A stretch of DNA of 64,000 nucleotides, from the NCBI GenBank assembly GCA_964621445.1, contig CAZUNO010000003.1, positions 124,664 to 188,663 of the forward strand, in the 5' to 3' direction. The translations under genes and the position numbers were made by a program. Of the stretch, positions 142 through 35,933 are shown piece after piece. The DNA comes from Candidatus Hadarchaeota archaeon (GTDB lineage: Archaea; CAYQAE01; CAYVLA01). The notes below the pieces were generated by a model, which ran no database searches, was not told the DNA's origin, and saw only the letters and a list, made by a program, of their open reading frames with translations. Every line of letters begins with the position of its first letter. Within the stretch, counting starts at the first letter, position 1.

Positions 142-959
142 GGAGCTCTAAAATCCCTCTTAACCTCTTCCAGGCTATCCCCGGCTATCTCGTAATCCCA
201 TCCACCTAGGCCGGCCTCTACTGCCATTGATATATGCTTGATCTTCCGGGGGTCAAAGCCCATTGCCCTGGACCCCACTATATCGGTGGCCACCACATCC
301 CTTCCGGCCAAAACCAGGCCCATGTCCACCGGGGTGCCGTCGGCTGGTCCCTCTCCCTCCATGGCCACCAGGCCATCAATAACTACCAGTGAGGGAGAGA
401 TCGCGCTATTGATGTCCAGAATGACATTTTCTATTCCCCTCATGTGATACCTGAACTTCCACTTGTTGGGCATCAGGCCGAACAGGTTCTTCATGCCCAG
501 GGTGACCAGGGTCGTCTTGTGGGTTTTCAGTTTGGCGGCGTCCACTATATGGCTCTCGGCGACTATTCTGGGTATGCTTACGGATTCGAAAGTGTTATTG
601 GTCGGGCACTCCAGCTCCACCCTTTCCTTTTCCCTCTTCAGATTCTTGAAAGGCACATCATGCCTCTCACATACCTCTAGCATGCCGGTCACCTCCGCCG
701 CCTCGTCGGCATCGGTCATGTTGGCATCGCTCTCAATTACCGCTATATCGCGATTTACCTCCCCTATCATTTCTATCAGGGTCTCGACAACCAGGGGGTC
801 GGTCGTGGCTCCCGTCTCCCAGGTTTCCGTTGCAATGAAATTTACCTTGATTAGAACCGGTTTTTCGGTTAGATGCCCCACGCCACCGGAAAGGTCCACT
901 GCACGCCGGACCGTGTCACCACATCTCTCACCCTTACTTATACCCACCTTGGGAATCAT
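138..959 (-). CDS. DUF362-family protein (uncharacterized, often linked to Fe-S proteins)
   Basis: 273-aa ORF; 'KTHKTTLVTLGMKNLFG' and 'LIKVNFIATETWETGATTDP' resemble DUF362 signatures; divergent from purL. Confidence 0.45.
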   Translation of the reverse strand: MIPKVGISKGERCGDTVRRAVDLSGGVGHLTEKPVLIKVNFIATETWETGATTDPLVVETLIEMIGEVNRDIAVIESDANMTDADEAAEVTGMLEVCERHDVPFKNLKREKERVELECPTNNTFESVSIPRIVAESHIVDAAKLKTHKTTLVTLGMKNLFGLMPNKWKFRYHMRGIENVILDINSAISPSLVVIDGLVAMEGEGPADGTPVDMGLVLAGRDVVATDIVGSRAMGFDPRKIKHISMAVEAGLGGWDYEIAGDSLEEVKRDFRAP

Positions 960-1076
960 CGGATGAAGTTAGGTTACCCGGTCTTATATTGGATTCCAGG
1001 AGGAACTTCCAGCGTCACCCAGCCGTCAACGGGGGCAGGAGAACATAATTATGCACATCCCATCACCCTGGAGATA

Positions 1077-4000: not shown

Positions 4001-4994
4001 GGAGGTCGTGCTCTCCGAGAGCATGGAGGTACTCAGGGATATCTGGGAGGAAACCAGCTACCAGCTTGAGAGGCTCCAGGCCAACCCCCGATGCGCGGAT
4101 AGCGAGAGAAGGGCCACCTCCAAACAGGAGCCCCCGCCCTACAAGGTCAGCTTTGACCCCCGGAGGACGCCATCAAGGGCCTTGTCGAGCCAGCAAAAGC
4201 CACGGGTGGCAATCCTGAGGGAGGAGGGCAGCAACGGGGACAGGGAAATGGCCTCTGCTTTCCACAGCGCTGGATTCGAATCCTGGGACGTTACCATGAC
4301 CGACCTGCTTGAAGGGAGAATTAACCTGGATATCTTCCAGGGAATCGCCTTTGTGGGAGGATTCAGCTACGCCGACGTTTTGGACTCAGCCAAAGGCTGG
4401 GCGGGCCTCATCAGGTTTAATGAGGACTTATGGGGCCAGTTCACGGGATTTTACGAGAGAGAAGATACCTTCAGTCTCGGGGTCTGCAACGGCTGTCAGC
4501 TAATGGCCCTTCTGGGATGGGTCCCCTGGGCGGGAATAGAAAGTGGTAATCAACCCCGGTTCATTAGCAATGAATCGGGAAGGTTCGAGTCCAGGTTTAG
4601 CACGGTCAGGATACTCCCCAGTGAATCCATAATGCTCAGGGGCATGGAAAACTCCGTATTGGGAATATGGGTGGCCCATGGGGAGGGCCGGGCCTACTTT
4701 CCTGAACAGGGTATCGAAAAGAGGGTCCTGAAGCGGAAGCTAGCACCACTGCGATATGTGGACCGGAATGGAGAGATGACCGGGGAGTACCCCTTCAACC
4801 CCAATGGATCACCAGAAGGCATTGCCGCCTTGTGCTCCCCAGATGGCCGGCACCTGACCATGATGCCCCACCCGGAGAGAACATTCCTTAAATGGCAATG
4901 GCCCTGGATGCCCCCAGAACTCAAAAAAATGGAAGCCTCTCCATGGCTTCGTCTCTTCCAAAATGCCATGACCTGGGTTGATGATCACCGATAA
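1077..4994 (+). CDS. purL: phosphoribosylformylglycinamidine (FGAM) synthase, single-chain large type (PurL with C-terminal glutaminase domain)
   Basis: About 1300 aa; 'GVCNGCQLMALLGW' class I glutamine amidotransferase Cys motif; PurM-like repeats. Track start 873 is probably too far upstream: in-frame ATG at 1077 is preceded by a GGAG at 1071-1074, and 'MGLLHLYRQPGLS' matches the usual PurL N-terminus. Confidence 0.85.
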   Translation: MGLLHLYRQPGLSPSQEESLLDQINQELDRDVPSLETEYCYNIELQDRLSEDQQQALNWLLAETFNPGGLRRTSLLEDEENVIEVGPRMNFTTAWSTNAVSICHACGIKDIQRIERSRRYLLELDPPLRREEKETILPLLHDRMTECHYPQPLETFETGVSPKPVRRVPVIQEGKEALRRINQELGLAFDDWDIDYYYRLFAKYMGRNPTDVECFDVAQSNSEHSRHWFFKGRLSIDGQEMDKSLLDLVRRTLKENPSNSLIAYQDNSSAISGFKVRTLTPREPGLPSPFSECTPEYNPIFTAETHNFPSGVAPFPGAETGTGGRIRDVHATGKGALVVAGTAAYCVGNLRVPGHHLPWEDLNYDYPGDLAQPLEIEIEASNGASDYGNKFGEPIIQGYTRSFGLTLPDGSRREWIKPIMFTGGVGQLESGHVDKGDPEGGMLIVKIGGPAYRIGMGGGAASSMIHGENVAALDFNAVQRGDAEMEQKVNRVIRACVELGQENPIISIHDQGAGGNCNVVKEIVHPAGGRVEIRDILVGDDTLSVLEIWGAEYQENDAILLDPHQLEFFSELCSREKVPFSVIGRVTDDGRMVVHDRVNQTTPVDLDLEKVLGEMPRKEFRLRSHEEDREALQLPPDLSVRNALRRVLRVLSVGSKRFLTNKVDRSVTGLIAQQQCAGPLHLTVSDVAVVAQSHFGHTGTAISIGEQPIKGLIDPPAMARLSLGEALTNIVWAQTTGLEDVKCSANWMWAPKLEGEGAKMVEAARALSDIMVKLGVAVDGGKDSLSMAANLPTGERTETVISPGSLTISAYVTCKDIRATITPDIKNPGRSVLILVDLGSGNARLGGSALAHAYGQIGKTSPDVEDPGTLERAFRVTQSLISRRIIEAGHDLSDGGLITTLLEMAFSGNCGFTVHLEEERESCIPRLFSEELGLVIEVLSSNQQEVLNAFRNAEVPCKVLGTTETNREVRIEFNGEVVLSESMEVLRDIWEETSYQLERLQANPRCADSERRATSKQEPPPYKVSFDPRRTPSRALSSQQKPRVAILREEGSNGDREMASAFHSAGFESWDVTMTDLLEGRINLDIFQGIAFVGGFSYADVLDSAKGWAGLIRFNEDLWGQFTGFYEREDTFSLGVCNGCQLMALLGWVPWAGIESGNQPRFISNESGRFESRFSTVRILPSESIMLRGMENSVLGIWVAHGEGRAYFPEQGIEKRVLKRKLAPLRYVDRNGEMTGEYPFNPNGSPEGIAALCSPDGRHLTMMPHPERTFLKWQWPWMPPELKKMEASPWLRLFQNAMTWVDDHR

Positions 4995-13568: not shown

Positions 13569-14175
13569 AGGTTCGTTACAGGAGCTAATCCTGGTCTCAA
13601 TATCACAGGCTGGGAAAACCAACCTAGCACCAATAGGCGTTTGGAGCGATGATAAAGGGCTCTTGGCAAGGATTGGCCGCGAAACCCAGAGCATGCGTAA
13701 CTTGCTCAGCCGTCCTCAAGCCCGTTTTTGTGTGACCCTGAACCCGCTATTGATAGCCAAATCGGCGTTTAATCTTGATTGCCATGAATTTATCCTGGAT
13801 GATAGCAGAGGACTCCCCCAGATATCCGGTTCCGAAGCCGATATTCTGGTGGAGATGAAGAGCCATAGGGATTTCGTGAAGAGGGACCTGCTTGGGAATT
13901 CGCCCTTTGTAGAGGTGCTCTTCGAGGTAAAGGAGGTCAAGGTAAAAGGATTGCCTCGTCCCCCATCTCGTTCTCTTTGTGCGACCATCGACTCCATCAT
14001 AGGAATAACTAGGGCTAGGCTGGCTCTTGAAAGGGAACTGGAAATATATGAACAGCTGGCTAGGCAGGTAAGAGAAAATATTTCAAAAGCAAGGAGGTTA
14101 GGAACAAACCAGGAAGAGGAGGAGGCCCTCCAGCTGTGCGAGGAAGAGCTGAAAGATATGACTAGAGAGGAGTGA
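13531..14175 (+). CDS. hypothetical protein, possibly DUF447-like split-barrel flavoprotein associated with methanopterin clusters
   Basis: Track ORF starts at 13429 inside the previous gene; in-frame ATG at 13531 ('MKDKMLIEKMM') gives a compact junction. Family assignment weak. Confidence 0.3.
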   Translation: MKDKMLIEKMMPEGSLQELILVSISQAGKTNLAPIGVWSDDKGLLARIGRETQSMRNLLSRPQARFCVTLNPLLIAKSAFNLDCHEFILDDSRGLPQISGSEADILVEMKSHRDFVKRDLLGNSPFVEVLFEVKEVKVKGLPRPPSRSLCATIDSIIGITRARLALERELEIYEQLARQVRENISKARRLGTNQEEEEALQLCEEELKDMTREE

Positions 14176-15737
14176 GCATGAACATGCTCACTGATGAGGG
14201 GGGGAAACCGCTCATAATAACCGGAAGGATCTGCTATCCAAGTATAAGTAAACTCACGCGCGAATTTGAAATCTCCATTTATGAGGTACCGATCGACGTC
14301 GCGGCCTTACTCACGGCAAATGATGTCATCGATGCCATGAAGGATATTGACCTGGAGGAGATAAGCTACGTCATGCTACCGGGTATGTTCAGAGGAGACA
14401 TAGACGCCCTCCAGGAGCGCTTTCAGATACCGTTCTTTCTAGGTCCTACTAACTTCGTTGATATACCTCTAGTAGTAAGCGAAACCTCGATCGCCGAGCT
14501 ATCAAAGACGGTCCCCGCCGATAGGCAAATAGCAGACCATAAGCGGAAAGAGGTTCTTGGCTTCTACAGAGATGCACGCCGCAGGGAAAACCAATGGCAA
14601 GGGGAACCTCTCATTATTGGTCATGATGATAATGGGGTATCCATAGGGAGAGGGTGCCCACCTGCACTGGTTGCCGAGGTCGTTGATGCACCAAGGAAGG
14701 ATGTCAAGGACATCCTAAAGGAATGCAGGCACTACCTTGAATCCGGAGCAGATATCATAGATATGGGGATGATTCCTCGGGAGGATAACTCGAAATGGAT
14801 CACATCAACAATACCCGAGATTAAGGCCGAAATCCAGGCGGCCATCAGTATAGACACAATGTCAGAGAAAGAGATCTTGGCTGCGAACGATCACCAAGCG
14901 GATCTTATTCTAAGTATCTGTGGAAGCACCATTGATTTAGTCCCCAGCATCGACCTGCCCTTTGTGCTAGTTCCCGTTGATGATCCCCAAAGCAAACCCC
15001 CTGATTCCAGCCAAGCCAGAGTAGAGAAGCTAAAATCCTACCTAAAACTCATCGGTAACCGGAATGTAATCCTTGACCCTTTACTGGCACCAATAGGAAC
15101 TGGATTCTATTCATCCATTAAATCGTATTTAAAACTGGAGGAGGAACTCCCGAAATTTCCATCATTAATGGGGATAGGAAATGTTACCGAATTAATCGAT
15201 GTTGATTCCATTGGCATCAACGCAGTGCTCGCTGCTTTGGCGCTCAAGGCAAACACGTCATTGATCTTAACAACGGAAAACAGCCAAAAATGTAGAAACT
15301 CGTTATCGGAGCTCAGCACAGCTTTAGCGATGATCTATTACTCACAACAGAAAAAAATAGTCCCAAAAAACATGGGCCTTAACCTCCTTCGCTACAAGGA
15401 AAAGAGGAAAAGGATTGATCCCACACCTCTAGCAAAACCTGAAATCAAGGCAGGAAAAGGAAAGCAAAAAACGGATATTGATAGGAATATAAAGTTCCAC
15501 ATTTTACTAAGGAACAAAAGAATTCATGTACTGAGGGAGGGAGAGGGAGATAAGATCCATCTTTCGGGGAATTCCGCCATGGACATCTGCTTTGAGCTGG
15601 ATAGGCAAGAACTATTGCCGGGACCAGCCCATTCCGTGTATTTAGGAAGGGAGCTGGCAAAGGCAGAGACCGCGCTAAAGACCGGCCGTAGCTACATCCA
15701 GGACCAGAACCTATTCACTGAGGTTGATGAGTCTTGA
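14172..15737 (+). CDS. mptH: dihydropteroate synthase-like pterin-binding protein with C-terminal extra domain (MptH-like)
   Basis: Pterin-binding TIM-barrel features ('GADIIDMG', 'ISIDT'); C-terminal 'GDKIHLSGNSAMDICFELDRQ' resembles the extension in archaeal DHPS-like proteins. Confidence 0.5.
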   Translation: MSMNMLTDEGGKPLIITGRICYPSISKLTREFEISIYEVPIDVAALLTANDVIDAMKDIDLEEISYVMLPGMFRGDIDALQERFQIPFFLGPTNFVDIPLVVSETSIAELSKTVPADRQIADHKRKEVLGFYRDARRRENQWQGEPLIIGHDDNGVSIGRGCPPALVAEVVDAPRKDVKDILKECRHYLESGADIIDMGMIPREDNSKWITSTIPEIKAEIQAAISIDTMSEKEILAANDHQADLILSICGSTIDLVPSIDLPFVLVPVDDPQSKPPDSSQARVEKLKSYLKLIGNRNVILDPLLAPIGTGFYSSIKSYLKLEEELPKFPSLMGIGNVTELIDVDSIGINAVLAALALKANTSLILTTENSQKCRNSLSELSTALAMIYYSQQKKIVPKNMGLNLLRYKEKRKRIDPTPLAKPEIKAGKGKQKTDIDRNIKFHILLRNKRIHVLREGEGDKIHLSGNSAMDICFELDRQELLPGPAHSVYLGRELAKAETALKTGRSYIQDQNLFTEVDES

Positions 15738-16729
15738 AAACTGGAGTTCGGGTTAAAACCGGTCCAAGACTCCATTTCGGCTTGTTAGACCTATCCGGTG
15801 ACATGGGCAGGGTGGACGGTGGAATCGGCATGGCCCTTCAGGAACCTTCTCTGGTCATCCAGGGTAGGAGATCGAGTTCCACGAAAAGCAACAAGTTCTC
15901 TAAACTGGTTGAGTATGCGGTTGACGCTCTAAACAAGCATTATGATAAAAATTACAGCCTCGATATCCAGGTAGATCGATCTTACCCCCAGCACGTGGGA
16001 CTGGGATCCACCACCCAGATCCTCCTCTCAATCTCATACATCTACAACTTAATTTTCGGACGAACACATAACTCGCGAGAAATGGCCAATTTGCTAGGGC
16101 GAGGTGGAACATCCGGGATTGGGGTAGCATCCTTTCGATCAGGAGGCTTCATACTTGATGCAGGTCATACCTTTGGTCATAACGGTGAAAAGAATACATT
16201 CCTGCCGTCGAGGGTTTCTAATTGTCCTCCTGCACCCGTTCTCTTTAGGCATCGCATTGCATCTGACTGGGTCGTTGATCTACTCGTACCCCTTGATTCC
16301 CCAGGCCTCTCCGGTAGACCTGAAGCCGAATTCTTTCAGAAAAAATGCCCAATTCCTCGGCCAGAAACCGATAGGATATCTAGAATAGTATTATCAATTA
16401 TCCTTCCAAGCGTTATTTCATCTGATATTAAACGCTTTTCTAAAGGCATTAACCTACTTACAACGTTGGGATTCAAGTATCTAGAGATACAAAACCAATC
16501 TGAATACGTAAGGAATCTAATTTCCGATATTAAACTGGTTACTAAAAATCAAGCAGCAGTTGGTTTAAGTTCATTTGGTCCAACCGTTTTTGTTATAAGT
16601 AAAAATAATTTAAGAATGAAATTCATTGATAAATTAAAGGATCACATATCGTATATACAATCACAACATGGAGTTACTTACTACGTAACAAGGTGTAGAA
16701 ATATTGGGGCTACTGTAAATGTATGGTAG
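15734..16729 (+). CDS. mptG: beta-ribofuranosylaminobenzene 5'-phosphate synthase-like (GHMP kinase fold)
   Basis: N-terminal 'RLHFGLLDL' and GHMP 'GLGSTT' motif. The last 350 nt are markedly AT-rich relative to the rest of the gene. Confidence 0.55.
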   Translation: MKTGVRVKTGPRLHFGLLDLSGDMGRVDGGIGMALQEPSLVIQGRRSSSTKSNKFSKLVEYAVDALNKHYDKNYSLDIQVDRSYPQHVGLGSTTQILLSISYIYNLIFGRTHNSREMANLLGRGGTSGIGVASFRSGGFILDAGHTFGHNGEKNTFLPSRVSNCPPAPVLFRHRIASDWVVDLLVPLDSPGLSGRPEAEFFQKKCPIPRPETDRISRIVLSIILPSVISSDIKRFSKGINLLTTLGFKYLEIQNQSEYVRNLISDIKLVTKNQAAVGLSSFGPTVFVISKNNLRMKFIDKLKDHISYIQSQHGVTYYVTRCRNIGATVNVW

Positions 16730-16917
16730 TTATCTTCATTGTTTGATTGTTTGACAAAGGAAACAGAACAACCTGAAAGAGGGGTACTATTGAGTTTTGT
16801 TTGATCGTTTGAATGATTATAGTTGTAGCTCCGATGGATATCTTGGAAAAGAGCATTTTCCCACCTGGTTTAGTTTTTTGTTTGTGTATGTTTGTTCAAA
16901 TGTTCAAATGGATTGGG

Positions 16918-18018
16918 TTATCCCTTTTTGAAGGCTCTGGTAATATCTTTGGAGAGAGTGTACTTGTTTTTTCTCCCGACTTTTTCCACTTGAACTGCTC
17001 CCATGTTACGTAACCTGTTTAGTTGGGTGTTTATGCTACCGTAGTTGTCAACGTCGAGTTCATCTAGCACATCCTTTATGAAGGCACCGTCGGGATAGTC
17101 AACAAGGGCCTGGATTATCTCACTTTGTTGTGGTGAGTATCTTTCTAGGATCTGTTCTCTCATTGGGCCCGTGTCCTTCTTCTTTCCTAGGTAATCAGCG
17201 ACCAGATCGGCATCTATAACATCTTTCCCTGACCTAATAGTCTGGAAGACTAATTGAGCTGCTATGGTTAGAGTATCCCTGGGTACCCCGTTTGAGTGTG
17301 CATGGATCTGTTCTATCGCCTCGTCTGTGAAGGGAAGGCCATCCTCTACTTCCTTCTCACCCCTGGCCCATGCTATTCTCCTGTAGATAAGTTCCTTTGT
17401 TTCTTCTAGGTCGAATGCCTCGAGGTAGATACGCATCTTTATTCGATCCTCGAGCGGAGGAACTTTCTTCCTGATGGTGTCTAGAGCATCTTCAGTTCCC
17501 GCGAACACTATGGACCCGCCGGCATCGTGTAGGGTTCTCACCCATCGGGCAGCTGGTTCGGATATTTCCTGGAATTCGTCGATTAAGATAACGATGTTTT
17601 CTTGTTGTAGGTGTTGTGTTATGTTTGTTGCAATTCTGTCTAGCTCTAGGGCCCTGTTTCTGGAAAAGATGGAGGATAGTCTTTCCAGGATGGAGGGTGA
17701 GTGAACGTTTTGATGTATGTGCCGGAGCATTTCGTCGTGGGTAAGGGGTTTTTCTATTAGGATTACCTTTCCGCCATTTTCCTTGCGAAGCATGTAGTGA
17801 AGCTTCTTTAGAAATGCGCTTTTACCATATCCTATGGGGGAAAGAATGGATACCATGCCCTGGTTATGTTGAAGCATGAAGGTTGCTTGGTTAAGTTCCT
17901 CTTCGTATCTGGGAACATAAACGAATTCATTGGGTAAAGGAGTATTCAGAATAAAGGGTTCTCTTCCGTGAGTCCAGCCTTGTTTGTTATAGAACTCCTC
18001 TGTTATGTTGGTGTTCAA
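16918..18018 (-). CDS. AAA+ ATPase with C-terminal winged helix (archaeal ATPase/AAA_22-like; Orc1-like not excluded)
   Basis: Walker A 'SPIGYGKSAFL', Walker B 'ILIDEFQ', C-terminal wHTH-like 'NRLRNMGAVQVEKVGRKNKYTL'; sits in a low-GC, GT-skewed island. Confidence 0.5.
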   Translation of the reverse strand: MNTNITEEFYNKQGWTHGREPFILNTPLPNEFVYVPRYEEELNQATFMLQHNQGMVSILSPIGYGKSAFLKKLHYMLRKENGGKVILIEKPLTHDEMLRHIHQNVHSPSILERLSSIFSRNRALELDRIATNITQHLQQENIVILIDEFQEISEPAARWVRTLHDAGGSIVFAGTEDALDTIRKKVPPLEDRIKMRIYLEAFDLEETKELIYRRIAWARGEKEVEDGLPFTDEAIEQIHAHSNGVPRDTLTIAAQLVFQTIRSGKDVIDADLVADYLGKKKDTGPMREQILERYSPQQSEIIQALVDYPDGAFIKDVLDELDVDNYGSINTQLNRLRNMGAVQVEKVGRKNKYTLSKDITRAFKKG

Positions 18019-18019
18019 T

Positions 18020-18563
18020 TTCTACCACTGAGGTGCGTGCCTTAAGGATCGTCTTGTGCGGGTAAACCTAAACATCACTCTAACGTTTGCTGAACATAGA
18101 TAACGTACGGCTTCCAATAATTGATAGGCAAATCTCGTTCTAATAAAGCTTTTTGTTTTATTTGTTGGCCCATGTTTTAGTTGTTGTTGCGCTCTGATCA
18201 GAAGTTGTATGAATAGTTGGGTTTGTTGTTATTGTTGGGGTGCTTTGGTAGGCAATTTTGATAGGCCTGGATATATCCAAAAGCAGATGATAATGATTTC
18301 GTTTGGTTTGTTGGTCTATTGTGTTCCTTCCGTTATGCTTGAATGTTTGGTGGGGTTTAACTCAGAGACCGTTGTTGGTCTTGTTGGAGTTAGTTATTGC
18401 TTACGTTAGGAGTTTGTATATGTTTGTTATTGATACGTTTACCTGTTAGCTGAACCGTTTATTGATGCGGTATAGTTGTTAGGCAGGTTTGAATTTGTTT
18501 GTTTTGGTGTTATTGGCGGTGGATAATGGCTGTTTAATTTGTTGATTTGTTATTAAGCGTATG
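18020..18563 (+). other. 544-bp non-coding stretch with strong G+T skew on the plus strand and a recurring 'gttattg' motif
   Basis: Only low-complexity ORFs; base composition unlike flanking coding DNA. Confidence 0.4.
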
Positions 18564-19493
18564 TTATGCTTTAGCTCGACCTATTAAATGGCGGGAAATT
18601 GCGCCAGTTACGTCAACTCCGGATGCCCTAGCGGTTGCTTCAAATGATGGAGAAGGGTTAACTTCAAGTAGCTTATGCCCTTCGGAAGTATCAAGAATGT
18701 CTACGCCGGCAATATCTAGATTAAGTACTTCTGAAGCCTTAATAGCGTCTTCAGCCATCTCAGCGGGTATATATTGTTTATCCAGCGCCTCTGCGGTGGC
18801 ACCAAGGGATATATTATGCTTGTATATGGAGCCCTGTCGCTTTATTGCAGCGATGATTTCATTACCAACAAGCAGTATTCTAATATCATATGAGGAAGGA
18901 ATGTAGGGCTGGATCATGGCGGGTTGTTTGTTCATATGAAAGAGGGAAAGGGTGTCTCCTAAACAAACATCATCCTTAGCTAACATAACACCAATCCCAC
19001 CAGCGCTTTGAAGGGCCTTGATTACACAGGGGGAATGGATAGTTGAGTTTGTTATATGTATGTTACGTATGGGGTTTGGTGATACGAAAAAGGGAACTAT
19101 TGGTAAATCATTTTTAGATAGAATGGAGAGACAAAGATGCTTCCTGGCGCTTAGATATATGGAACGCGGATGGTTAATAACGGGGACTTGTTGAGAGGCA
19201 ATCCACATGGTCTCAAAAAAGAATTGGAAACATCTAGGACCGTATTCCTCAAGCCATGAAGATATGGGCCTTTGGAAAATTAGATCAAAGGAGGAAAATG
19301 ACATGTTTTCAACTTGGCCGTAAGCTAGGTCATTTAGGTCTGGAGAAGGGCCTGAACCGGTTTGAGGATGATTGATTAGGGAGAGCCAGGTGTCATTTGG
19401 ACTGAAAACATCAAATTCGATGCCCAGGGAATTGAATTTTGGGGCAAAAAGGGATACTTCCTTTTTGTTTTTTGGAAAGTAGGCTATCCTCAT
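18564..19493 (-). CDS. RimK-family ATP-grasp alpha-L-glutamate ligase (MptN/CofF-like)
   Basis: ATP-grasp C-terminal core ('VNPSPSFE', 'DIAGVDILD'); 309 aa is typical of RimK-type ligases; AT-rich codon usage. Confidence 0.55.
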   Translation of the reverse strand: MRIAYFPKNKKEVSLFAPKFNSLGIEFDVFSPNDTWLSLINHPQTGSGPSPDLNDLAYGQVENMSFSSFDLIFQRPISSWLEEYGPRCFQFFFETMWIASQQVPVINHPRSIYLSARKHLCLSILSKNDLPIVPFFVSPNPIRNIHITNSTIHSPCVIKALQSAGGIGVMLAKDDVCLGDTLSLFHMNKQPAMIQPYIPSSYDIRILLVGNEIIAAIKRQGSIYKHNISLGATAEALDKQYIPAEMAEDAIKASEVLNLDIAGVDILDTSEGHKLLEVNPSPSFEATARASGVDVTGAISRHLIGRAKA

Positions 19494-20085
19494 TGGAATT
19501 CCCTTTGATTTTATGTTATGACTTGTAGCATAACAAGAAGGGGGGGAAAAGTTATATGTGTTGTTATGATTAGAATAATGGAGTAAGAAAGGGGTTGGCT
19601 GATAACGGCAAGGTTAGAGATTTGGGTTAATAACAATAGGGGGTAAATGGGGAAATTACAAATAAATATTAATAAGATTGATTCCAAAAGTTATTAATCA
19701 TTTTATTCAGCATTGGAATTAGAAGCCAGAAATGCGTTCATGAAGATATGAGATGACATTAATCCTGTATCTGGGACGTTGGAGATTATCATTTGCTAAA
19801 TAAAGAAATCTAAGGGCCTGGCCTGCCGGTTACGGGCATTAATTGTAAATCATAATAAGTCTCAAAAAGGGGGGTGGAAACGGAAAAAAAGAAAGAGGCA
19901 TCTCGAAAAGGGGCAAAAGGGGGGTGCTAGTGTAACTATATATGAATTAGGGCTGCAATAAGGTTTAATTAAAAAAATGGACAGCTATGGGGGCATAAGA
20001 GGAGTAATGGGAAGCAAAAAGGGGTTTGATGGGTAATAAGATGGGTGTTAGGAGGGGGTCAAGGATGCAGGATTATTTCTAATAC
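19494..20085 (+). other. 592-bp purine-rich non-coding region with G runs
   Basis: No ORF of 60 aa or more in any frame; A+G-rich on the plus strand; lies between the ATP-grasp gene start and the mfnB-like gene end. Confidence 0.4.
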
Positions 20086-20793
20086 TCAAATTAGGGTTTC
20101 TTTGAAACGATCAACCCTATGTGCCGTTATTTTACCGTTACGCCGGTCGTTAGATTGACAGGCAGCACCTCTGATACCTATAACATCTGGTGATAATGTT
20201 TTGAGTTGTTTAGAGTGATTCAGATTTAGGGAGCCGGCCAGGGCGGAGATCATATCCATTTCCTGGAGGTGGGAGATAAATGAACAGAGTTCATCATAAG
20301 CCATGAAGTCAAACAAACATCTACCATCTTTGTTTATTGTGTCGATAAGGACCCCATCAGCTCCAGATTGGGATGCCGCCTGGAGTAGGACCAGGGGGGA
20401 AATGGACCCAACAAGTTCCCAGTCGGCGTAGCCACAGGCTATTACCTTAATCGAGGGATCGATTGATTTAACGATATCAACGGAGGGGGTGAGTAGGGCT
20501 TGGGCCTCGGATTGGGTTTTTGTACCAAAGAGACCAAGCTTAACGTAATCCGGTGAAAGATATGCCGCCCCGGCGGCTGCCAAGCTGACGGTTCCGGGAA
20601 GATTTGGGAGATCACCTATAGCACAACTGGTTTCACTTGTTCCGTTTACGGCATCGATAATCCTAGAGGCCTTCTGGGGAGTTGGGGCTCCAAGAGAGCC
20701 CTCCGCGGGATTCTTTATGTCAACAATGTCGGCGCCACCCGAGATGGCTTCTGGCACCTCTTCCTCGTCTACAACGCTGACTAGTAACCTCAT
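20086..20793 (-). CDS. mfnB: (5-formylfuran-3-yl)methyl phosphate synthase MfnB-like (DUF556)
   Basis: 'MRLLVSVVDEEEV...GGADIVDIKNPAEGSLGA' and 'DVIGIRGAAC' closely match my recollection of M. jannaschii MfnB. Confidence 0.65.
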   Translation of the reverse strand: MRLLVSVVDEEEVPEAISGGADIVDIKNPAEGSLGAPTPQKASRIIDAVNGTSETSCAIGDLPNLPGTVSLAAAGAAYLSPDYVKLGLFGTKTQSEAQALLTPSVDIVKSIDPSIKVIACGYADWELVGSISPLVLLQAASQSGADGVLIDTINKDGRCLFDFMAYDELCSFISHLQEMDMISALAGSLNLNHSKQLKTLSPDVIGIRGAACQSNDRRNGKITAHRVDRFKETLI

Positions 20794-21464
20794 GATGTGA
20801 TGGTAGAGGATTCGCTATAAATATGAGTTCCATACGTTCGGCCGTTAACCAAAAGCTGATGAATTCGTTTTGGGTGGTGACCATTTACAATCCATGCCTC
20901 AAGTCCATGTTTCCTAAGAATAATCGGGAGATATTCGTCTACCAGGGATTGACGGTGACCGGAGAGGTCCTTTGCTGTGAGGGATTTGATGATCTCTTTG
21001 GATTTTTGATTCGTCAGCCCATCAACAGATTTTAATAGAAGCAATTTGGAGTTTAGGGTATTGGCTAAATAAGCGGAGATTGTATCGGAGGTCACTTCCC
21101 AGCTTTGGGGAAGATCTGATTCCTTGATAGGCGAGTAGGGAAGAAAAATGGGGATCGGTTTGCCGGGTTCCGGCTTTGGCTGCGTCGATAGGCTAAAGTA
21201 ATTCGGCCAGCTAGATTCAATACAATAAGCGTTGAGGTGCATGGCAAGGATTGCCAGCCAGTGAGAACCTCTATTCCCAATACTGTAGTTATGCCCCAGT
21301 TTTCTGATTAGATCTGCATAGGAGCCCCCACCCGCTACAGCCGCAATATCTTTTATCTTATGGACATTCCAAAGCTCGCCGACTATTTCTTCCAGTATCT
21401 CACTTGCGTCATTTATGAGACTTCCACCGATCTTCACGACCCACATTACTTGGCCATCCTCCAT
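20790..21464 (-). CDS. amino-acid-kinase-family small-molecule kinase (MfnE-like)
   Basis: 'VVKIGGSL' N-terminal kinase motif and 'AVAGGGS'; 4-bp overlap with mfnB-like suggests co-translation. Confidence 0.45.
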   Translation of the reverse strand: MEDGQVMWVVKIGGSLINDASEILEEIVGELWNVHKIKDIAAVAGGGSYADLIRKLGHNYSIGNRGSHWLAILAMHLNAYCIESSWPNYFSLSTQPKPEPGKPIPIFLPYSPIKESDLPQSWEVTSDTISAYLANTLNSKLLLLKSVDGLTNQKSKEIIKSLTAKDLSGHRQSLVDEYLPIILRKHGLEAWIVNGHHPKRIHQLLVNGRTYGTHIYSESSTITS

Positions 21465-22582
21465 GCCTCAATCGAAAGTGAAACCGCTGGAGCTGTAGTG
21501 CAAACCTCCTTTTCCAGGCCGGCAACATCCATGTTGAGTTCCTGGTTCACGAAATTTTGGAAGGGGATAGGTGTTTTTAATCCGGTCTTTAGGGCGGCTG
21601 GTTTGGCAAGACATTCAGAGCCGCTTCCCGCGATAATACAGGGAATCTCTGTCCCGAGTTTGGCTCTGTTGAGAACAAAGCCGATGGACTTCTCCACCCT
21701 TTCAATCTGTCTATTGCGAACCGAGACGGCGATTTCTCGGATCTGGTTCCCATTAAGCTCTTGAAGGTCCGAGCACACGACTCTGGCCAGTCTTCTCATG
21801 CAGGCGGTAAGGTTTGTTCCCTTGCCATCAGCTGTAGGTCCGCCGTAATCACCTGGACCTAACAGACCGAGAATTATGTTGACATCGCCCATAGTTGCAA
21901 ATTCCTCTGAAGCGCAGGGGATTTCACTACCACCCAAATTCACCGAGTCCACTACTGTGGCTACGTTGGTCCTAGTCGAACCGGTGTATACCAGTTCCCG
22001 ATTCTTGAGTCTACCTCTGTCCGTTGGGTCATTGACAGCTGGACGTCCAGATAGGATGGGGATTATATCGGTGGTGGTTGATCCCGAATCTATTAGCAAG
22101 GACTGGGAGTGAGCTCTCCCTATCAGCAAGGATGTTGGGACCCAATTTGCTGCGGCGACTTCCAATGGGCGGGATATTGCTGTTTTGCCCTTAACCACCG
22201 ATCCCGAGTTTAGGATGATTCTGGTTTCTGGCTCCTGTTCTAGGAGACTAGAAAGAACGAATTCTACTCCCTGCTTTTTTGATTGGAAGCAATCCGCGAG
22301 CTCCGCCGTCATGGTGGCCAAGGTTAGATGTGGGACAGCCTGGTAGGGCTCCAATAGCTTCTGAACTAATTTGGGGAAAGAGCGGTAGTTCTTCCAAAAT
22401 GGATGGTAGATTGATTTTAGGTCACGGATTTCGAGCCCCTCTCCCCCATTTGAGGTTACTGCAATTTTGGTGTTTGCACCGCCAATATCTAACCCGATTG
22501 CTAGCATTTGATGTGCCTCTCTGATAGCCATTTCTTTACACGGGCAAATCGTTGAGGTATCTCCATGGAGTCCTTGGCCCAA
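21446..22582 (-). CDS. hydantoinase/ASKHA-fold protein of the H4MPT-linked C1 family (MfnF-like)
   Basis: 'LAIGLDIGGANTK' ASKHA phosphate-1 motif; the real start may be the internal M near 22528. Confidence 0.45.
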   Translation of the reverse strand: MGQGLHGDTSTICPCKEMAIREAHQMLAIGLDIGGANTKIAVTSNGGEGLEIRDLKSIYHPFWKNYRSFPKLVQKLLEPYQAVPHLTLATMTAELADCFQSKKQGVEFVLSSLLEQEPETRIILNSGSVVKGKTAISRPLEVAAANWVPTSLLIGRAHSQSLLIDSGSTTTDIIPILSGRPAVNDPTDRGRLKNRELVYTGSTRTNVATVVDSVNLGGSEIPCASEEFATMGDVNIILGLLGPGDYGGPTADGKGTNLTACMRRLARVVCSDLQELNGNQIREIAVSVRNRQIERVEKSIGFVLNRAKLGTEIPCIIAGSGSECLAKPAALKTGLKTPIPFQNFVNQELNMDVAGLEKEVCTTAPAVSLSIEAWRMAK

Positions 22583-23685
22583 ACACAGGTCAATACCTTG
22601 CTTTTTCCCTTCATATAGTAGGGACCCACAGGAAATGGTGGGGAAACTATCATCTTACTTTGAAACATCTTCTGGTGGATTGATTGGTCAAATGGGACGG
22701 TCCGGATTAAGGGTAGTATGGACCATTTTGAAAAGCCCTCAGTATCAACAGCGGTTTTCTCCCCGGTGATGATCGATGCCAATCCTTTCTGGATTATCTT
22801 TTCTATACCTATACATGATGTGGTCATCCTGGGATTTATCTCCATAAAATGAGCCTTGCCCTGACTATATACAAAGTCTAGGGTCATCAGGCCCTTAAGC
22901 TTGCTCTTTGTTACCATGGAGGAGATATCATCCCAAAGCCCACGAACGGGAAGGGGGAATGGGCTGGAACCACCCAGGTATTCAAGCTCTTGAGAAGCCT
23001 GGATGGCTTGGGTGTTAATTGCAAGAGGAATTACCTCGCTTTCCATGGCCATGAAGGTCGCACTGAGGTGGCGTCCCTGCTTGAATTCCTGAATAATGGC
23101 AGAATTCCACCCGGAGCTCCTTAATTTTGCAGCTGCGCGTCTGCAATCGCTATTGCTTCTAACTATGGTTGTGCCCTCGCATCCAGCCCCGTCAGGGGGT
23201 TTTATAACCAGGGGTAAACCCATTTTGGGGATTGCCCTGGATATTTCCTTGGTAGTAGATTCAGTGGTTAAGGTTCTGGGCACGGACAGGAAATTGCATT
23301 GCTGGTCGACTAATTCAAATGAAGAGGGCTTATTCGCCAACCGGGAAACCGTTCCCGAGGGGCAGCTCAACAATTCCGTTTCCTGCTCAATGGCACGAGT
23401 GAGCTCGAGGAGTTTTCCGCCTGATTCTGGAGCAATTATGAAAGCGGCGTCGAAGCTAGATGAAGTCTCTGGGAGCTCTTCCATTGGGTTTTCCCGGGGA
23501 AATACCAGATCATAGATCGGTAAAAAACCGGCCTCTCTCTTTAAACTCTTATTAACTGCGGCGGTAACCTCGTGACCATCCTTTTTGAAGGATTCACATA
23601 ACGTCCGGAGCATGCCGAACCCCTGTGGCAGAATGCTTCTCGGCCCGCCCTTGAGTGATGTCCATTCCGACAGGAGGAGCTTCAT
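22501..23685 (-). CDS. ATP-grasp ligase (MfnD-like, tentative)
   Basis: 394 aa; ATP-grasp core ('LPLVIKPPDGAGCEGTTIV', 'MEINPR'). Confidence 0.4.
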   Translation of the reverse strand: MKLLLSEWTSLKGGPRSILPQGFGMLRTLCESFKKDGHEVTAAVNKSLKREAGFLPIYDLVFPRENPMEELPETSSSFDAAFIIAPESGGKLLELTRAIEQETELLSCPSGTVSRLANKPSSFELVDQQCNFLSVPRTLTTESTTKEISRAIPKMGLPLVIKPPDGAGCEGTTIVRSNSDCRRAAAKLRSSGWNSAIIQEFKQGRHLSATFMAMESEVIPLAINTQAIQASQELEYLGGSSPFPLPVRGLWDDISSMVTKSKLKGLMTLDFVYSQGKAHFMEINPRMTTSCIGIEKIIQKGLASIITGEKTAVDTEGFSKWSILPLIRTVPFDQSIHQKMFQSKMIVSPPFPVGPYYMKGKSKVLTCVWAKDSMEIPQRFARVKKWLSERHIKC

Positions 23686-23734
23686 GGCTACGCATTTAAT
23701 AGCGGACTTCTTTTAAATCTGGTGAGCTGGGACC

Positions 23735-24448
23735 TTGAGAATCATTCCCGTTCTGGATATTCTTGATGGAAAAGTTGTAAGGGGTGTTGCTGGTAATCGG
23801 AAGAGGTACAAGCCGGTCACCAGTTCCATAACCGATTCAGTTCATCCGGTGCAGGTTGCCCGGGATCTCCTTGACATTCACACCTTCCGGGAAATCTACA
23901 TAGCCGACCTCGACGCTATCGAGGGCAGGCCCGACAACAGGGAGCTTGTGAAAGAAGTATCTGAATTGGGCTGCCAGGTTTACCTCGACTCCGGAATTAC
24001 GGGTCCGGGGGACATTGACCCGGATTACGAAATCAACCACCTGGTAGCTGGAACCGAGACCCTGGATTCATTGGAGGTCTTGGCAGAGATCTGTCAGATG
24101 CACCCGTCTGTAGTTTCCAGCTTGGATTACAAGGGAGATGACCTGCTTTGCCGAGAGGAAAGCCTGAAACATATGAAACCCCGAGAGCTCGTCGCCAGCG
24201 TATGCGCTGCAGGCGTTTCGGAGATCATCTACCTGGACCTGGCTCGGGTTGGAACCGGTTCCGGTGTAGTATGCGAGAGAGTTGAGATGGTCATAGAAGC
24301 GTCCGAGGTACCGGTGATCGTGGGAGGCGGGATTAGGAATGCATCCGATATTCGATCCCTTGATGAGGCTGGGGCGGATGGTGTTTTGGTTGCGAGCTGC
24401 GTTCACTCAGGTGAGTTGGATGAAGGGGACCTAGAGGGTTTGACCTGA
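23735..24448 (+). CDS. HisA/HisF-family TIM-barrel protein (paralog associated with cofactor clusters)
   Basis: 'RIIPVLDILDGKVVRGV' and C-terminal 'VIVGGGIRNASDI' phosphate-binding motifs of the HisA/HisF fold. Confidence 0.55.
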   Translation: MRIIPVLDILDGKVVRGVAGNRKRYKPVTSSITDSVHPVQVARDLLDIHTFREIYIADLDAIEGRPDNRELVKEVSELGCQVYLDSGITGPGDIDPDYEINHLVAGTETLDSLEVLAEICQMHPSVVSSLDYKGDDLLCREESLKHMKPRELVASVCAAGVSEIIYLDLARVGTGSGVVCERVEMVIEASEVPVIVGGGIRNASDIRSLDEAGADGVLVASCVHSGELDEGDLEGLT

Positions 24449-35833: not shown

Positions 35834-35933
35834 GGGCCCGTGGTCTAGCTGGTTATGACATCGCCTTGACGTACTCCTTTTCAGGCGTTCAAAAAGGCGA
35901 AGTTCTTGGGTTCAAATCCCAACGGGCCCACCA
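35834..35933 (+). tRNA. tRNA-Val (anticodon GAC) with a 23-nt canonical intron (35872-35894) and encoded CCA
   Basis: Acceptor GGGCCCG/CGGGCCC, anticodon stem TCGCC/GGCGA, loop TTGACG-intron-A, T-arm TTGGG-TTCAAAT-CCCAA, discriminator A then CCA. Confidence 0.7.

Follow-up and report, generated by a model that had tools for sequence, protein, structure and literature searches.

STAND/AAA+ regulators that act through arrays of asymmetric boxes are exemplified by Escherichia coli MalT, with its co-oriented MalT boxes, and by the bacterial enhancer-binding proteins. In archaeal Orc1/Cdc6 proteins, an AAA+ base and lid are followed by a C-terminal winged helix, and the corresponding origins carry inverted pairs of ~22–36 bp origin recognition boxes (ORBs) around an AT-rich unwinding element. 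Helical phasing is a feature of regularly spaced archaeal operator arrays such as that of Ss-LrpB, whose own gene is preceded by three boxes at distances of whole helical turns, and of phased A-tract DNA ahead of promoters, which is curved. At the RNA level, G-poor unstructured elements are known from Rho rut sites, which are C-rich and G-poor, and from the (CAA)n leader TMV omega. Archaeal RNA polymerase is known to terminate at oligo-T. Here we compare with these systems an archaeal locus in which two long gaps flank a gene for a RimK-like ATP-grasp enzyme. We propose, at roughly even odds (a probability of about 0.5), that both gaps are long conserved non-coding DNA control regions and that the ATP-grasp gene and the ATPase gene downstream of it are separately regulated units.

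The locus is part of the methanofuran/tetrahydromethanopterin biosynthesis supercluster of an uncultured archaeal clade. It lies in a 64-kb stretch of DNA, which was analysed as a whole and is hereafter called the window; the window carries an intron-containing tRNA and the H4MPT/MFR pathway (Pfam annotation of 38 window ORFs). The features on which the argument draws are the following.

16730–16917, minus strand: third C-poor gap (C.11), between convergent 3′ ends and outside the two stretches of the original prediction
16918–18018, minus strand: AAA+ ATPase (AAA_22) with a C-terminal ArsR/Penicillinase_R-like winged helix (Pfam; winged helix-turn-helix match to ArsR)
18019–18563, minus strand: downstream gap, non-coding, A+C-rich and G-poor on the gene strand, site of the phased AACA array and of the predicted promoter of the ATPase gene
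18139–18153, minus strand: predicted BRE/TATA of the AAA+/winged-helix gene, AAAAAG-CTTTATTAGA, at the boundary of G depletion
18154–18543, minus strand: five co-oriented AACA-N5-AACA boxes (18531–18543, 18373–18385, 18224–18236, 18173–18185 and 18154–18166)
18564–19493, minus strand: RimK/MptN-like ATP-grasp glutamate ligase gene (Pfam RimK, 1.9e-28)
19494–20085, minus strand: upstream gap, non-coding, C+T-rich, G.09 on the gene strand
19506–19567, minus strand: promoter-proximal A+C-rich block, with ATAACAAC at 19560–19567 and AACATAAAATCA at 19506–19517
19660–19697, minus strand: AT-rich inverted pair TTAATAAC-N14-TTATTAATATTTATTT, some 170 nt ahead of the start codon (ATG) of the ATP-grasp gene
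19861–20020, minus strand: candidate termination zone of the mfn operon, with T5–T7 runs and the conserved CCCCCCTTTTTGAG
20086–20793, minus strand: mfnB (4-HFC-P synthase; Pfam 4HFCP_synth, 4.3e-73), in the same place in all related loci

A scan of GTDB species representatives yielded relatives at 38% identity or less only, and a metagenome scan contributed five further loci; the lineages compared range in GC from about 48% to 59%. The order mfnB, gap, RimK-like ATP-grasp gene, gap, AAA+/winged-helix gene is kept in all of the at least eight related lineages retrieved, the gap after mfnB measuring 550–611 nt across 10 lineages and the gap after the ATP-grasp gene 545–687 nt across lineages. 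G depletion is present at every related lineage retrieved, despite the ATP-grasp proteins being merely 41–48% identical. The original prediction hinged on conservation in relatives, and length, position, composition and several motifs are indeed kept. Contigs carrying the locus are broken in some relatives, one ending in a poly-C run and two inside a gap; compositional outliers of such kind break assemblies.

The strand bias that first drew attention to the two stretches is real, and they are the most C-depleted parts of the window. On the plus strand, 18019–18563 has A.20, C.125, G.26 and T.415, and 19494–20085 has A.36, C.095, G.28 and T.27, against a mean C of.246 for the whole window; both gaps are G-poor on the gene-bearing (minus) strand. 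Among all 400-nt windows of the 64 kb, the minimum C (.0925) and the maximum T (.455) both fall at 18.1–18.6 kb, and C below.13 is confined to 16.45–20.26 kb. Since no 400-nt window anywhere in the 64 kb has G below.13, the bias affects one strand only and is peculiar to this locus. The statement that most intergenic gaps are shorter than 150 bp is roughly right, but about six other gaps exceed 400 nt; on a crude gene map of the window, none of these shows strand bias. The ATP-grasp gene between the two stretches is the most G-poor of 40 CDSs of the window (G.17, third-position GC skew −0.41). Its clade has a mean skew of −0.28 versus +0.12 ± 0.10 in 66 distant RimK-like genes, and among the genes compared such a G-poor coding sequence is unique to this clade.

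Composition of this kind could be mutational in origin and without direct function, for example through cytosine deamination on an often single-stranded strand, with antisense transcription or R-loops (G-rich antisense RNA on a C-rich template) as the source and the gaps as ordinary intergenic DNA. The third-position skew of the ATP-grasp gene (−0.4 to −0.66) is indeed as strong as in the gaps and fades away in the adjoining genes, and in 18019–18563 the C-poor strand is T-rich. The gaps also evolve at about the speed of weakly constrained sites: outside conserved islands, identity is 69% in the gap versus 85% in the coding sequence, which suggests divergence at roughly neutral-like rates there. 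In 19494–20085, however, the C-poor strand is A-rich and not T-rich, and the bias would have to persist across lineages of about 48% to 59% GC. A purely mutational origin moreover leaves unexplained the gap lengths, the box positions, their helical phasing, the protection of AACA from substitution and the abrupt stop of the bias at the TATA box described below, and we regard it as quite unlikely.

The gaps could alternatively hide genes, namely a structured non-coding RNA, degenerate pseudogenes, or small proteins or peptide precursors on which the ATP-grasp enzyme would act. In favour of this are the length of the gaps, their position on both sides of an ATP-grasp gene, and the fact that certain ATP-grasp enzymes have small peptides or carrier proteins from neighbouring genes as substrates. 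The complete list of ORFs in both gaps is short.

18209–18409, plus strand: 66 aa, Cys/Val/Gly/Leu-rich, low-complexity, not conserved
18303–18449, plus strand: 48 aa
19511–19687, minus strand: 58 aa, Leu/Ile-rich, low-complexity, not conserved

The claim that neither gap has an ORF of at least 60 aa thus misses one low-complexity 66-aa frame and is otherwise right. Open stretches in the gaps are no longer than in shuffled sequence (window and 10 relatives), tblastx of the gaps gave no coding signal between lineages, the gaps have no similarity to the flanking genes of which they might be relics, and the gene callers of five sources made no conserved calls in them; no protein-coding frame emerges. 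Structured RNA, which had been suggested, fares no better. At gathering score, Rfam has no match in either gap and only a tRNA at 35834–35930 in the whole window, and at E ≤ 5 the interval 17800–20300 gives four sub-threshold noise matches only; the weak box C/D-like noise at 19670–19720 is what could be quoted in favour. Folding energies are insignificant on both strands of both gaps (MFE z-scores −0.42, −0.82, −0.62 and −1.12), and the covariation term of a three-lineage alifold is unfavourable (+1.0 kcal/mol), a weak test with only 3 alignable sequences. Hidden genes are therefore, on these results, extremely unlikely, and compositional outliers like these gaps are not to be read as RNA genes.

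Evidence for a DNA-level function comes from the downstream gap. In the downstream gaps, AACA occurs 186 times versus 64 expected (3-fold enrichment), and distances between copies peak at 9–12, 19–23, 30–33, 42–44, 51–53 and 61–64 nt. The AACA periodogram has its maximum exactly at 10.5 bp in each of seven lineages (power 6.6 versus a null of 1.4 ± 0.3, matched by 0 of 300 shuffles). AACA is also phase-locked to the TATA box (Rayleigh p about 2e-12), with an identical phase in six lineages, the distal part more than 160 bp upstream included; the elements of 18019–18563 and its relatives are, in other words, helically phased and in register with the promoter. The longer AACA-N5-AACA box has six matches in 64 kb against 0.28 expected, all on the minus strand between 17617 and 18543, and matches to its PWM are found in the window at this locus only and also in six related loci. 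Box positions are conserved: one box directly follows the stop codon of the ATP-grasp gene, and three others lie about −137, −53 and 0 relative to the BRE (spacings 84 and 52–53 bp); the TATA-nearest of them may be no more than the BRE itself. Between two sequences of 95% identity, AACA was protected from substitution, accounting for 1 of 33 differences versus 5.4 expected. A search for short direct repeats had been suggested, and here the outcome is mixed: tandem and dispersed repeat finders returned short low-complexity families only, with no long inverted or direct repeats, whereas the co-oriented AACA boxes are present.

The G depletion ends at the predicted promoter of the AAA+/winged-helix gene. 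A nearly invariant AAA(A/G)CTTTAT(T/C)AG lies 113–140 nt ahead of the start codon in seven lineages, and AAAAAG-CTTTATTAGA fits the pattern of a purine-rich BRE followed by a T/A-rich octamer. Upstream of the TATA box G is.09–.13, versus.20–.28 downstream, in 7 of 7 lineages, and the final ~120 nt of 18019–18563 would form the leader of the AAA+/winged-helix gene. A bacterial-type promoter/terminator scan, which is not applicable to archaea, gave fewer promoter-like sites than in shuffles and was set aside. As in Ss-LrpB arrays, boxes are spaced by whole turns (52–53 and 84 bp) upstream of the candidate regulator's own promoter, and as in phased A-tract curved DNA, A-rich elements recur at a 10.5-bp periodicity. 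Unlike in either system, all boxes are asymmetric and point the same way, the array extends much further, and one-strand G depletion spans the whole neighbouring coding sequence. Part of the strand bias is attributable to asymmetric boxes that share one orientation, but because the AACA boxes occupy only about 15% of the downstream gaps, they alone cannot explain a G content of 9–13% throughout; nor can they alone explain the G-poor third codon positions of the ATP-grasp gene. G depletion in general, running through the ATP-grasp coding sequence as well, is thus only partly explained.

The upstream gap begins beyond mfnB, the final gene of the mfnD-F-E-B operon, whose stop codon lies inside ATTTGAGT. 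T5–T7 runs are found at 20016–20020, 19971–19977 and 19884–19890, CCCCCCTTTTTGAG occupies 19861–19874, and a TT(T/C)GAG element lies 209–222 nt past the mfnB stop in eight of nine lineages. Oligo-T termination is likely used at 19861–20020, and the first ~225 nt of 19494–20085 probably carry the termination zone of the mfn operon. The inverted pair at 19660–19697, a candidate operator and/or distal TATA, is kept in all lineages as TAATA(C/A)-N15-19-(G)TATTA(A/C)AA, and in L075, L085 and L078 its arms are invariant and its spacer variable. In the promoter-proximal block, AACATAAAATCA is the counterpart of the conserved AACAGATATCA found at −34 to −22 in relatives and is predicted to be a TATA-like element about 25–30 nt ahead of the ATP-grasp ATG, which would imply a leaderless or very short-leadered ATP-grasp mRNA. 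The 90 nt directly before this ATG are at least 90% conserved in the same three lineages, the coding sequence 85%. In 19494–20085, WW, SS and CC dinucleotides recur about every 10 bp, a signal whose power none of 300 shuffles matches. This upstream-gap periodicity of 10.0 bp is weaker than that of the downstream gap, has no phase lock to the ATG across lineages, and in the window's own 19494–20085 reaches the 97th–99th percentile only. The ATP-grasp CDS has an AA/T/CC period of 10.0–10.25 (0 of 300 codon shuffles).

These promoters bear directly on an RNA-level reading, in which the gaps would belong to the mfn and ATP-grasp transcripts as long untranslated stretches whose low G content serves to keep them unstructured. 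They might then provide a C-rich, G-poor landing zone for factor-dependent termination (an archaeal counterpart of Rho rut sites), enhance translation through CAA-rich sequence, or soak up a protein that binds single-stranded RNA. Like rut sites and omega, the downstream gaps read CAACAACAA or AACAAAC, with G of 4–16% and almost no predicted structure. The gene-sense RNA of the locus is predicted to be almost structure-free, with a folding energy of −0.12 kcal/mol per nt, about half that of the antisense RNA, and the depletion is strictly strand-specific, covers gaps and CDS alike and stops at the promoter. The downstream gaps of high-GC lineages, furthermore, contain no oligo-T runs (T.08–.16) yet must terminate ATP-grasp transcription, and L083 attains C.60 with G.05. 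To our knowledge, however, Archaea lack Rho; most of the G-poor sequence is located upstream of promoters and not within the mRNAs that these drive; and the TATA-like element 22–34 nt before the ATP-grasp ATG would place most of the upstream gap outside the sense mRNA. At the RNA level there is no rationale for a 10.5-nt period that keeps its phase with a TATA box across more than 400 nt, and in one distant locus (L090, see below) the array has the opposite orientation with respect to the ATPase homologue. The helical phasing speaks for DNA, and we consider an RNA-level role for the gaps unlikely. Long UTRs, another of the earlier suggestions, would apply to the first ~225 nt of 19494–20085 and the last ~120 nt of 18019–18563 but not to most of both gaps, which lies upstream of conserved TATA-like elements.

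The enzyme encoded between the gaps shares the RimK ATP-grasp domain with the RimK/MptN/CofF/MyfB ligases (Pfam RimK, 99.8 bits against a cut-off of 21), and its best NCBIfam matches are the RimK family and MptN. In contrast to those ligases, it scores far under every equivalog cut-off (MptN, 103 versus 350 bits), is below the cut-off of the subfamily TIGR00768 as well (126 versus 143.4) and has a G-poor CDS. As with MyfB, which builds the polyglutamate tail of methylofuran (PMC8141765), the gene adjoins methanofuran genes. For this RimK-type ligase of methylofuran, the bacterial analogue, the authors of that study infer that the amount of enzyme expressed sets the polyglutamate chain length (PMC8141765), which would give a reason for tight, separate control of the ATP-grasp gene.

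The product of the gene downstream, an ATPase of about 366 aa with a Walker A/B core and a winged helix, belongs to a tiny family and is 65–83% identical across lineages whose MfnB is 47–63% and whose ATP-grasp protein is 41–48% identical. Its nearest relatives are AAA_22/ATPase_2 proteins with a winged helix-turn-helix, and it is weakly similar to the nSTAND, NACHT and NB-ARC Pfam models. The AF2 model (pLDDT 67) suggests the same three-domain layout as in Orc1/Cdc6 or STAND proteins, and its top Foldseek matches are archaeal Orc1/Cdc6, then NLR, RuvB and MuB. Among anti-phage defence models, PADLOC gave weak matches only, and this reading was rejected. Like MalT-type regulators, the locus combines an NTPase domain fused to a helix-turn-helix with several non-palindromic co-oriented boxes upstream of promoters, in fixed register with the core promoter. 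It differs from them in its archaeal BRE/TATA promoter, in an array longer than 400 bp in which almost each helical turn has its box signal, and in a small protein with no recognizable sensor domain, whose binding is predicted.

Boxes also occur beyond the ATPase gene. In the third gap, TCAAAC-N2-TCAAAC is found at 16799–16812 and 16741–16754, 58 bp apart, and an inverted copy at 16896–16909 lies directly past the ATPase stop. This 58–59 bp spacing recurs in five lineages, there are no other matches in the 64-kb window, and related boxes flank the ATPase gene in both orientations. We examined one neighbourhood among ~90 more distant AAA_22 and winged helix-turn-helix homologues (E ≤ 1e-10), L090, where a 29% identical ATPase homologue in a different gene context adjoins the densest TGTT cluster of its contig; the cluster has spacings of 10, 9 and 11 and inverted orientation, and contains the reverse complement of AAACAATTCAAACAA. 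Adjacency and this one distant homologue are the basis for linking boxes and ATPase.

The structural matches raise the question of whether the locus is a replication origin or centromere-like site, with the ATPase as a divergent ORC-like initiator and the AACA boxes as its recognition boxes. The best matches are archaeal Orc1/Cdc6 on origin DNA (2v1u and 2qby; E about 5e-10), and a long repeat-bearing non-coding region lies directly upstream of the gene of this highly conserved protein, as beside Orc1/Cdc6 genes. The locus is the lowest-GC part of the window, and the sign of GC skew switches near 14–16 kb. TM-scores are only 0.30–0.38, however, with RuvB, NLR and MuB nearly as good, and the Orc1/Cdc6 profiles TIGR02928 and PF09079 (Cdc6_C) give no match to the ATPase at E ≤ 1e-3. 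Because cumulative skew over the 64 kb follows gene orientation, it is uninformative on an origin. In place of inverted ORB pairs the locus has short, co-oriented direct repeats, there is no conserved AT-rich unwinding element, high-GC lineages have no AT-rich element, the gaps of L075, L077 and L079 are not AT-rich, and the window is without replication genes, the genomic context being cofactor biosynthesis. An origin or centromere-like site is thus very unlikely. Of the suggested replication or segregation sites, what survives is the underlying idea of a protein-binding region at the DNA level, given the 10.5-bp phased boxes, and not the role in replication or segregation itself.

If both gaps are control regions, as we propose, the upstream gap would comprise, in gene order, the oligo-T termination zone of mfnDFEB, the inverted-repeat operator or distal TATA, and the A+C-rich block with its TATA-like element. 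The downstream gap would be a region of more than 400 bp upstream of the ATPase gene, with AACA-N5-AACA boxes displayed on one helix face at a 10.5-bp period, 5 and 8 turns apart and in phase with a strong BRE/TATA. A protein would bind these boxes head-to-tail and cooperatively; judged from sequence, it is probably the neighbouring ORC/STAND-like ATPase, which would control its own gene and the ATP-grasp gene. A further version of the proposal, which we find decidedly doubtful, is that the ~2.1 kb between the mfnB stop and the promoter of the ATPase gene form, as a whole, the assembly platform for a previously undescribed sequence-directed nucleoprotein filament. In that case the ATPase would polymerize head-to-tail with one contact per helical turn on a strand-asymmetric DNA face, the ATP-grasp CDS included, and long-term selection would have shaped composition even at synonymous sites. 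Such a filament, if true, could be a cofactor-responsive chromatin switch for methanofuran/H4MPT biosynthesis or, alternatively, a non-canonical origin or partition site.

Gene regulation in uncultured archaea is almost entirely uncharacterized, and this locus offers a precise testable case, centred on a small, very conserved AAA+/winged-helix protein with no characterized relatives. Its gene lies beside asymmetric boxes that are helically phased with a predicted archaeal promoter, among the genes for two C1 cofactors, methanofuran and tetrahydromethanopterin. If the link between the ATPase and the boxes holds, they would represent a new regulator family together with its DNA code, and would show that binding-site architecture can imprint a strong one-strand bias over 2 kb, a coding sequence included.

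The two ORF-free, strand-biased stretches lie in a methanofuran/tetrahydromethanopterin biosynthesis supercluster (8-28 kb), with the following features in and beyond it:

Supercluster, minus strand: MfnD, MfnF, MfnE and MfnB (mfnB, 20086-20793)
Supercluster, plus strand: MptE-like gene, DUF447, dihydropteroate-synthase-like gene, beta-RFAP synthase
Supercluster, further genes: CofC-like, HisA/F-like, aminotransferase
19494-20085: upstream gap
18564-19493, minus strand: RimK/MptN-like ATP-grasp ligase gene, between the two gaps
18019-18563: downstream gap
16918-18018, minus strand: AAA_22 ATPase gene (366 aa, C-terminal ArsR-like winged helix), after the second gap
16730-16917: third, short C-poor gap, after the ATPase gene, between convergent genes
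35834-35930: tRNA gene of 97 nt (Rfam, 55.8 bits; missed by ARAGORN)

The window is archaeal, with BRE/TATA-type promoters and an intron-containing tRNA, and the gene at 35834-35930 is consistent with an archaeal tRNA of that type. Elsewhere it encodes a fused FGAR amidotransferase (873-4994), a single large PurL of 1373 aa with N-terminal, linker, PurM-like, and glutaminase domains; this single fused form is unusual for archaea. An ORF of 3045 aa (46875-56012, minus strand) has a 549-nt gap downstream. The polyglutamate tail of methylofuran, the bacterial analogue, is built by RimK-type ligases, and its chain length was inferred by the authors to be set by ligase expression level (PMC8141765).

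On the plus strand, the downstream gap contains 12.5% C and 41.5% T and the upstream gap 9.5% C and 64% A+G, compared with a window mean of 24.6% C. When the 64 kb are scanned in 400-nt windows, both the lowest C and the highest T fall within these stretches, and values below 13% C are all confined to 16.45-20.26 kb. GC content at 16-20 kb drops to 0.41 versus 0.51 for the window (seen within 14000-24000), and the only ORFs in the stretches are low-complexity frames of 66, 48, and 58 aa. Since all genes of the segment are on the minus strand, the stretches are G-poor in gene orientation: ahead of the ATP-grasp gene the sequence is C+T-rich, and past it A+C-rich. Third-position GC skew is negative in the flanking genes too (mfnB, -0.35; ATPase, -0.28), and the bias thus tapers off into the neighbouring genes, with no end at the gap border on the mfnB side. 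The ATP-grasp gene itself is the most G-poor among 40 coding sequences of the window, the mean GC skew of its clade being -0.28 versus +0.12 +/- 0.10 in 66 distant RimK-like genes.

GTDB species representatives contained no close homologue (best, 38%). A large protein collection yielded eight ATP-grasp clusters (42-48% identity) and about 14 ATPase clusters (63-84%). Gene order was the same in every contig retrieved, namely mfnB, a gap of 550-611 nt, ATP-grasp, a gap of 545-687 nt, ATPase, a gap of ~190-250 nt, and a convergent beta-RFAP synthase gene; these lineages match the window proteins at identities of 65-83% (ATPase), 47-63% (MfnB), and 41-48% (ATP-grasp). In every lineage G is scarce on the gene-sense strand, its fraction being.09-.19 (upstream gap),.04-.16 (downstream gap), and.16-.22 (ATP-grasp coding sequence), at a locus GC ranging from about 48% to 59%. 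Because order, gap lengths, and G depletion are common to every lineage, the feature is real, old, and maintained, and the strand-biased stretches singled out in the original prediction stand as a non-trivial feature. Outside conserved islands, gap sequence drifts at approximately neutral speed: upstream gaps of one lineage pair (L075/L078) are 69% identical versus 85% for coding sequence, and downstream gaps of another (L072/L081) 94.7% versus 98.3%. A regional mutational bias tied to antisense transcription or R-loops is an unlikely source of the G depletion in our estimation. One contig (L083) ends in a run of >60 C within the downstream gap, and two others (L087 and L088) have their starts 171-197 nt ahead of the ATPase gene, the region being of low complexity and prone to assembly breaks.

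Neither gap matches an Rfam family, and folding of both strands of both gaps revealed no excess of structure (z from -0.4 to -1.1), so that the suggestion of structured RNAs was not borne out. The gene-sense RNA is predicted to be nearly structure-free, and the G depletion could stem from an RNA-level need for unstructured C-rich transcripts, for example, in factor-dependent termination, an explanation that we consider possible if doubtful. Hidden genes are very unlikely, given the lack of an Rfam family, of any conserved coding signal in tblastx comparisons between lineages, and of open frames longer than those in shuffled gaps. The gaps lack similarity to the flanking genes, which speaks against their being relics of these, and a search for long repeats in the gaps found none.

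The upstream gap carries the following elements, in gene order:

Several T5-T7 runs
19861-19874: (T)TTTGAG(Y)(R)TT, then ATCCCC, 209-222 nt past the mfnB stop in 8/9 lineages
19814-19829: palindromic island containing G
19660-19697: AT-rich inverted pair TAATA(C/A)-N15-19-TATTA(A/C)AA, about 170 nt before the ATP-grasp ATG
CGAATAA, in most lineages
A+C-rich block bearing (CA)TAACAAC boxes; at its end, AACAGATATCA (-34..-22, 8/11 lineages)
19506-19517: AACATAAAATCA, the window equivalent of AACAGATATCA

Judged by sequence, the T runs and the (T)TTTGAG(Y)(R)TT region probably act as a zone of oligo-T termination for the mfn operon. The inverted pair, in which the arms are invariant and the spacer free among close lineages, is as expected for a candidate operator or distal TATA, and the AACAGATATCA/AACATAAAATCA element has the position expected of a TATA box in front of a putative leaderless or near-leaderless ATP-grasp mRNA. 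The last 90 nt before the ATG are at least 90% conserved in three lineages (L075, L085, and L078), exceeding the coding sequence. WW, SS, and CC dinucleotides in this gap show a 10.0-bp period (power 5-6; 0/300 shuffles), which lies at the 97th-99th percentile in the window itself, is weaker than the downstream-gap signal, and has no phase lock to the ATG. Within the ATP-grasp coding sequence, AA, T, and CC recur every 10.0-10.25 bp to an extent that exceeds codon-shuffled controls. S/W periodicity of ~10 bp is strongest in the window at 62700-63350 (normalised power up to 18 versus a 99th percentile of 7.3), inside an ORF-free gap of 699 nt that contains A-runs in phase (aaaaaag, aaaacc, aaaaag, etc.) and has no Rfam match at E<=1.

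The downstream gap carries a promoter-like element:

18139-18153: BRE/TATA-like AAA(A/G)CTTTAT(T/C)AG, nearly invariant, 113-140 nt before the ATPase start codon

This element reads as an archaeal BRE/TATA, and G depletion stops exactly there in 7/7 lineages (.09-.13 upstream versus.20-.28 in the presumed leader). The proposal of long UTRs was right in part, with respect to this presumed leader and the probable mfn termination zone. Upstream of the BRE/TATA-like element, nine gaps together contain the tetramer AACA 186 times versus 64 in dinucleotide-preserving shuffles, with distances peaking at 9-12, 19-23, 30-33, 42-44, 51-53, and 61-64 nt. The periodogram maximum is 10.50 nt (mean power 6.6 versus a null of 1.4 +/- 0.3, reached by 0/300 shuffles; 4.9-10.8 per lineage); controls (mfnB, the ATPase gene, and the 2 kb to each side) showed nothing in the 9.75-11 band. 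In six lineages AACA keeps a consistent phase to the TATA box (offsets 5.7-8.0 of 10.5; Rayleigh p about 2e-12 when pooled), and it does so >160 bp upstream as well. The bipartite AACA-N5-AACA boxes are conserved in position: one follows the ATP-grasp stop by 16-50 nt, and three more lie near -137, -53, and 0 relative to the BRE, separated by 8 and then 5 helical turns. The AACANNNNNAACA-type pattern (AACAANNNNAACA) has six matches in the window, all on the minus strand at 17617-18543, versus 0.28 expected, and a PWM search of the window and six related 6-21 kb loci located no box elsewhere, apart from a site within the ATPase gene that codes for TNIT. Of the 33 differences between two sequences 95% identical, only 1 strikes AACA versus 5.4 expected (binomial p about 0.02). 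Because the period equals the DNA helical repeat and is locked to the promoter, the phasing is a property of double-stranded DNA, not RNA. TNIT is present at two places in the ATPase (N-terminal MNTNITEE, 17995-18018; internal ATNITQQ, 17603-17629), in each case with codons rich in AACA that fit the box pattern, and the first ~30 nt of the gene show nucleotide-level conservation between lineages.

The ATPase carries Walker A (GYGKS), Walker B (ILIDEF), and GVPRD motifs and a winged helix, and its whole family falls into one cluster at 50% identity. Beyond that cluster, the nearest relatives (E from 1e-32 down) are AAA_22/ATPase_2 proteins of ~350 aa with a Penicillinase_R-like wHTH, not Cdc6. 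Its AlphaFold model (pLDDT 67) best matches archaeal Orc1/Cdc6 (2v1u, 2qby, 1w5t; E about 5e-10, TM 0.30-0.38), closely followed by NLR/STAND proteins, RuvB, and MuB; the model shares the three-domain plan of Orc1/Cdc6, a likeness that is not by itself a sign of family membership. A replication origin at the locus is unlikely, and the earlier idea of a DNA site came closest, albeit for a regulatory and not a replication site. The gap at 16730-16917 holds two TCAAAC-N2-TCAAAC boxes 58 bp apart (58-59 bp in five lineages), and an inverted copy directly follows the ATPase stop codon, in the same arrangement in five lineages; these boxes may be sites on the DNA or else pair as arms of a long-range hairpin in the 3' UTR. 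Beyond the close family, the association of array and protein was examined for one distant homologue, P0028 (29% identical; locus L090), which has a different gene context, oriented divergently to a DUF354 gene. The 249-nt gap between these two genes (3752-4000) is T+G-rich (C.11 in the core) and contains the densest TGTT cluster of the contig, with spacings of 10, 9, and 11 nt and the reverse complement of AAACAATTCAAACAA; ATAAAATCA lies beside the DUF354 start, and the same nonamer is present upstream of the window ATP-grasp ATG. Since this array adjoins the homologue gene in inverted orientation, the array seems, from this one case, to travel with the ATPase family with its orientation free, which favours recognition at the DNA level.

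The gaps are conserved, non-coding, and unstructured and carry promoter- and terminator-like signals, and in 18019-18563 asymmetric boxes form an array phased with the helix and in register with the promoter. We infer that the gaps are long control regions that would render the ATP-grasp and ATPase genes separately regulated units. The boxes would be bound cooperatively, head-to-tail, by a protein, for which the adjacent ATPase/winged-helix protein is the most economical candidate. The G depletion between the boxes and at all three ATP-grasp codon positions goes beyond this reading and is not explained by it; an extended nucleoprotein platform as its cause appears rather unlikely. Both helically phased regulatory arrays and regulators of the NTPase-HTH type are already known. 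We found no described counterpart in the literature of an archaeal, one-strand-biased phased array of >400 bp paired with a tiny ORC/STAND-like protein family.
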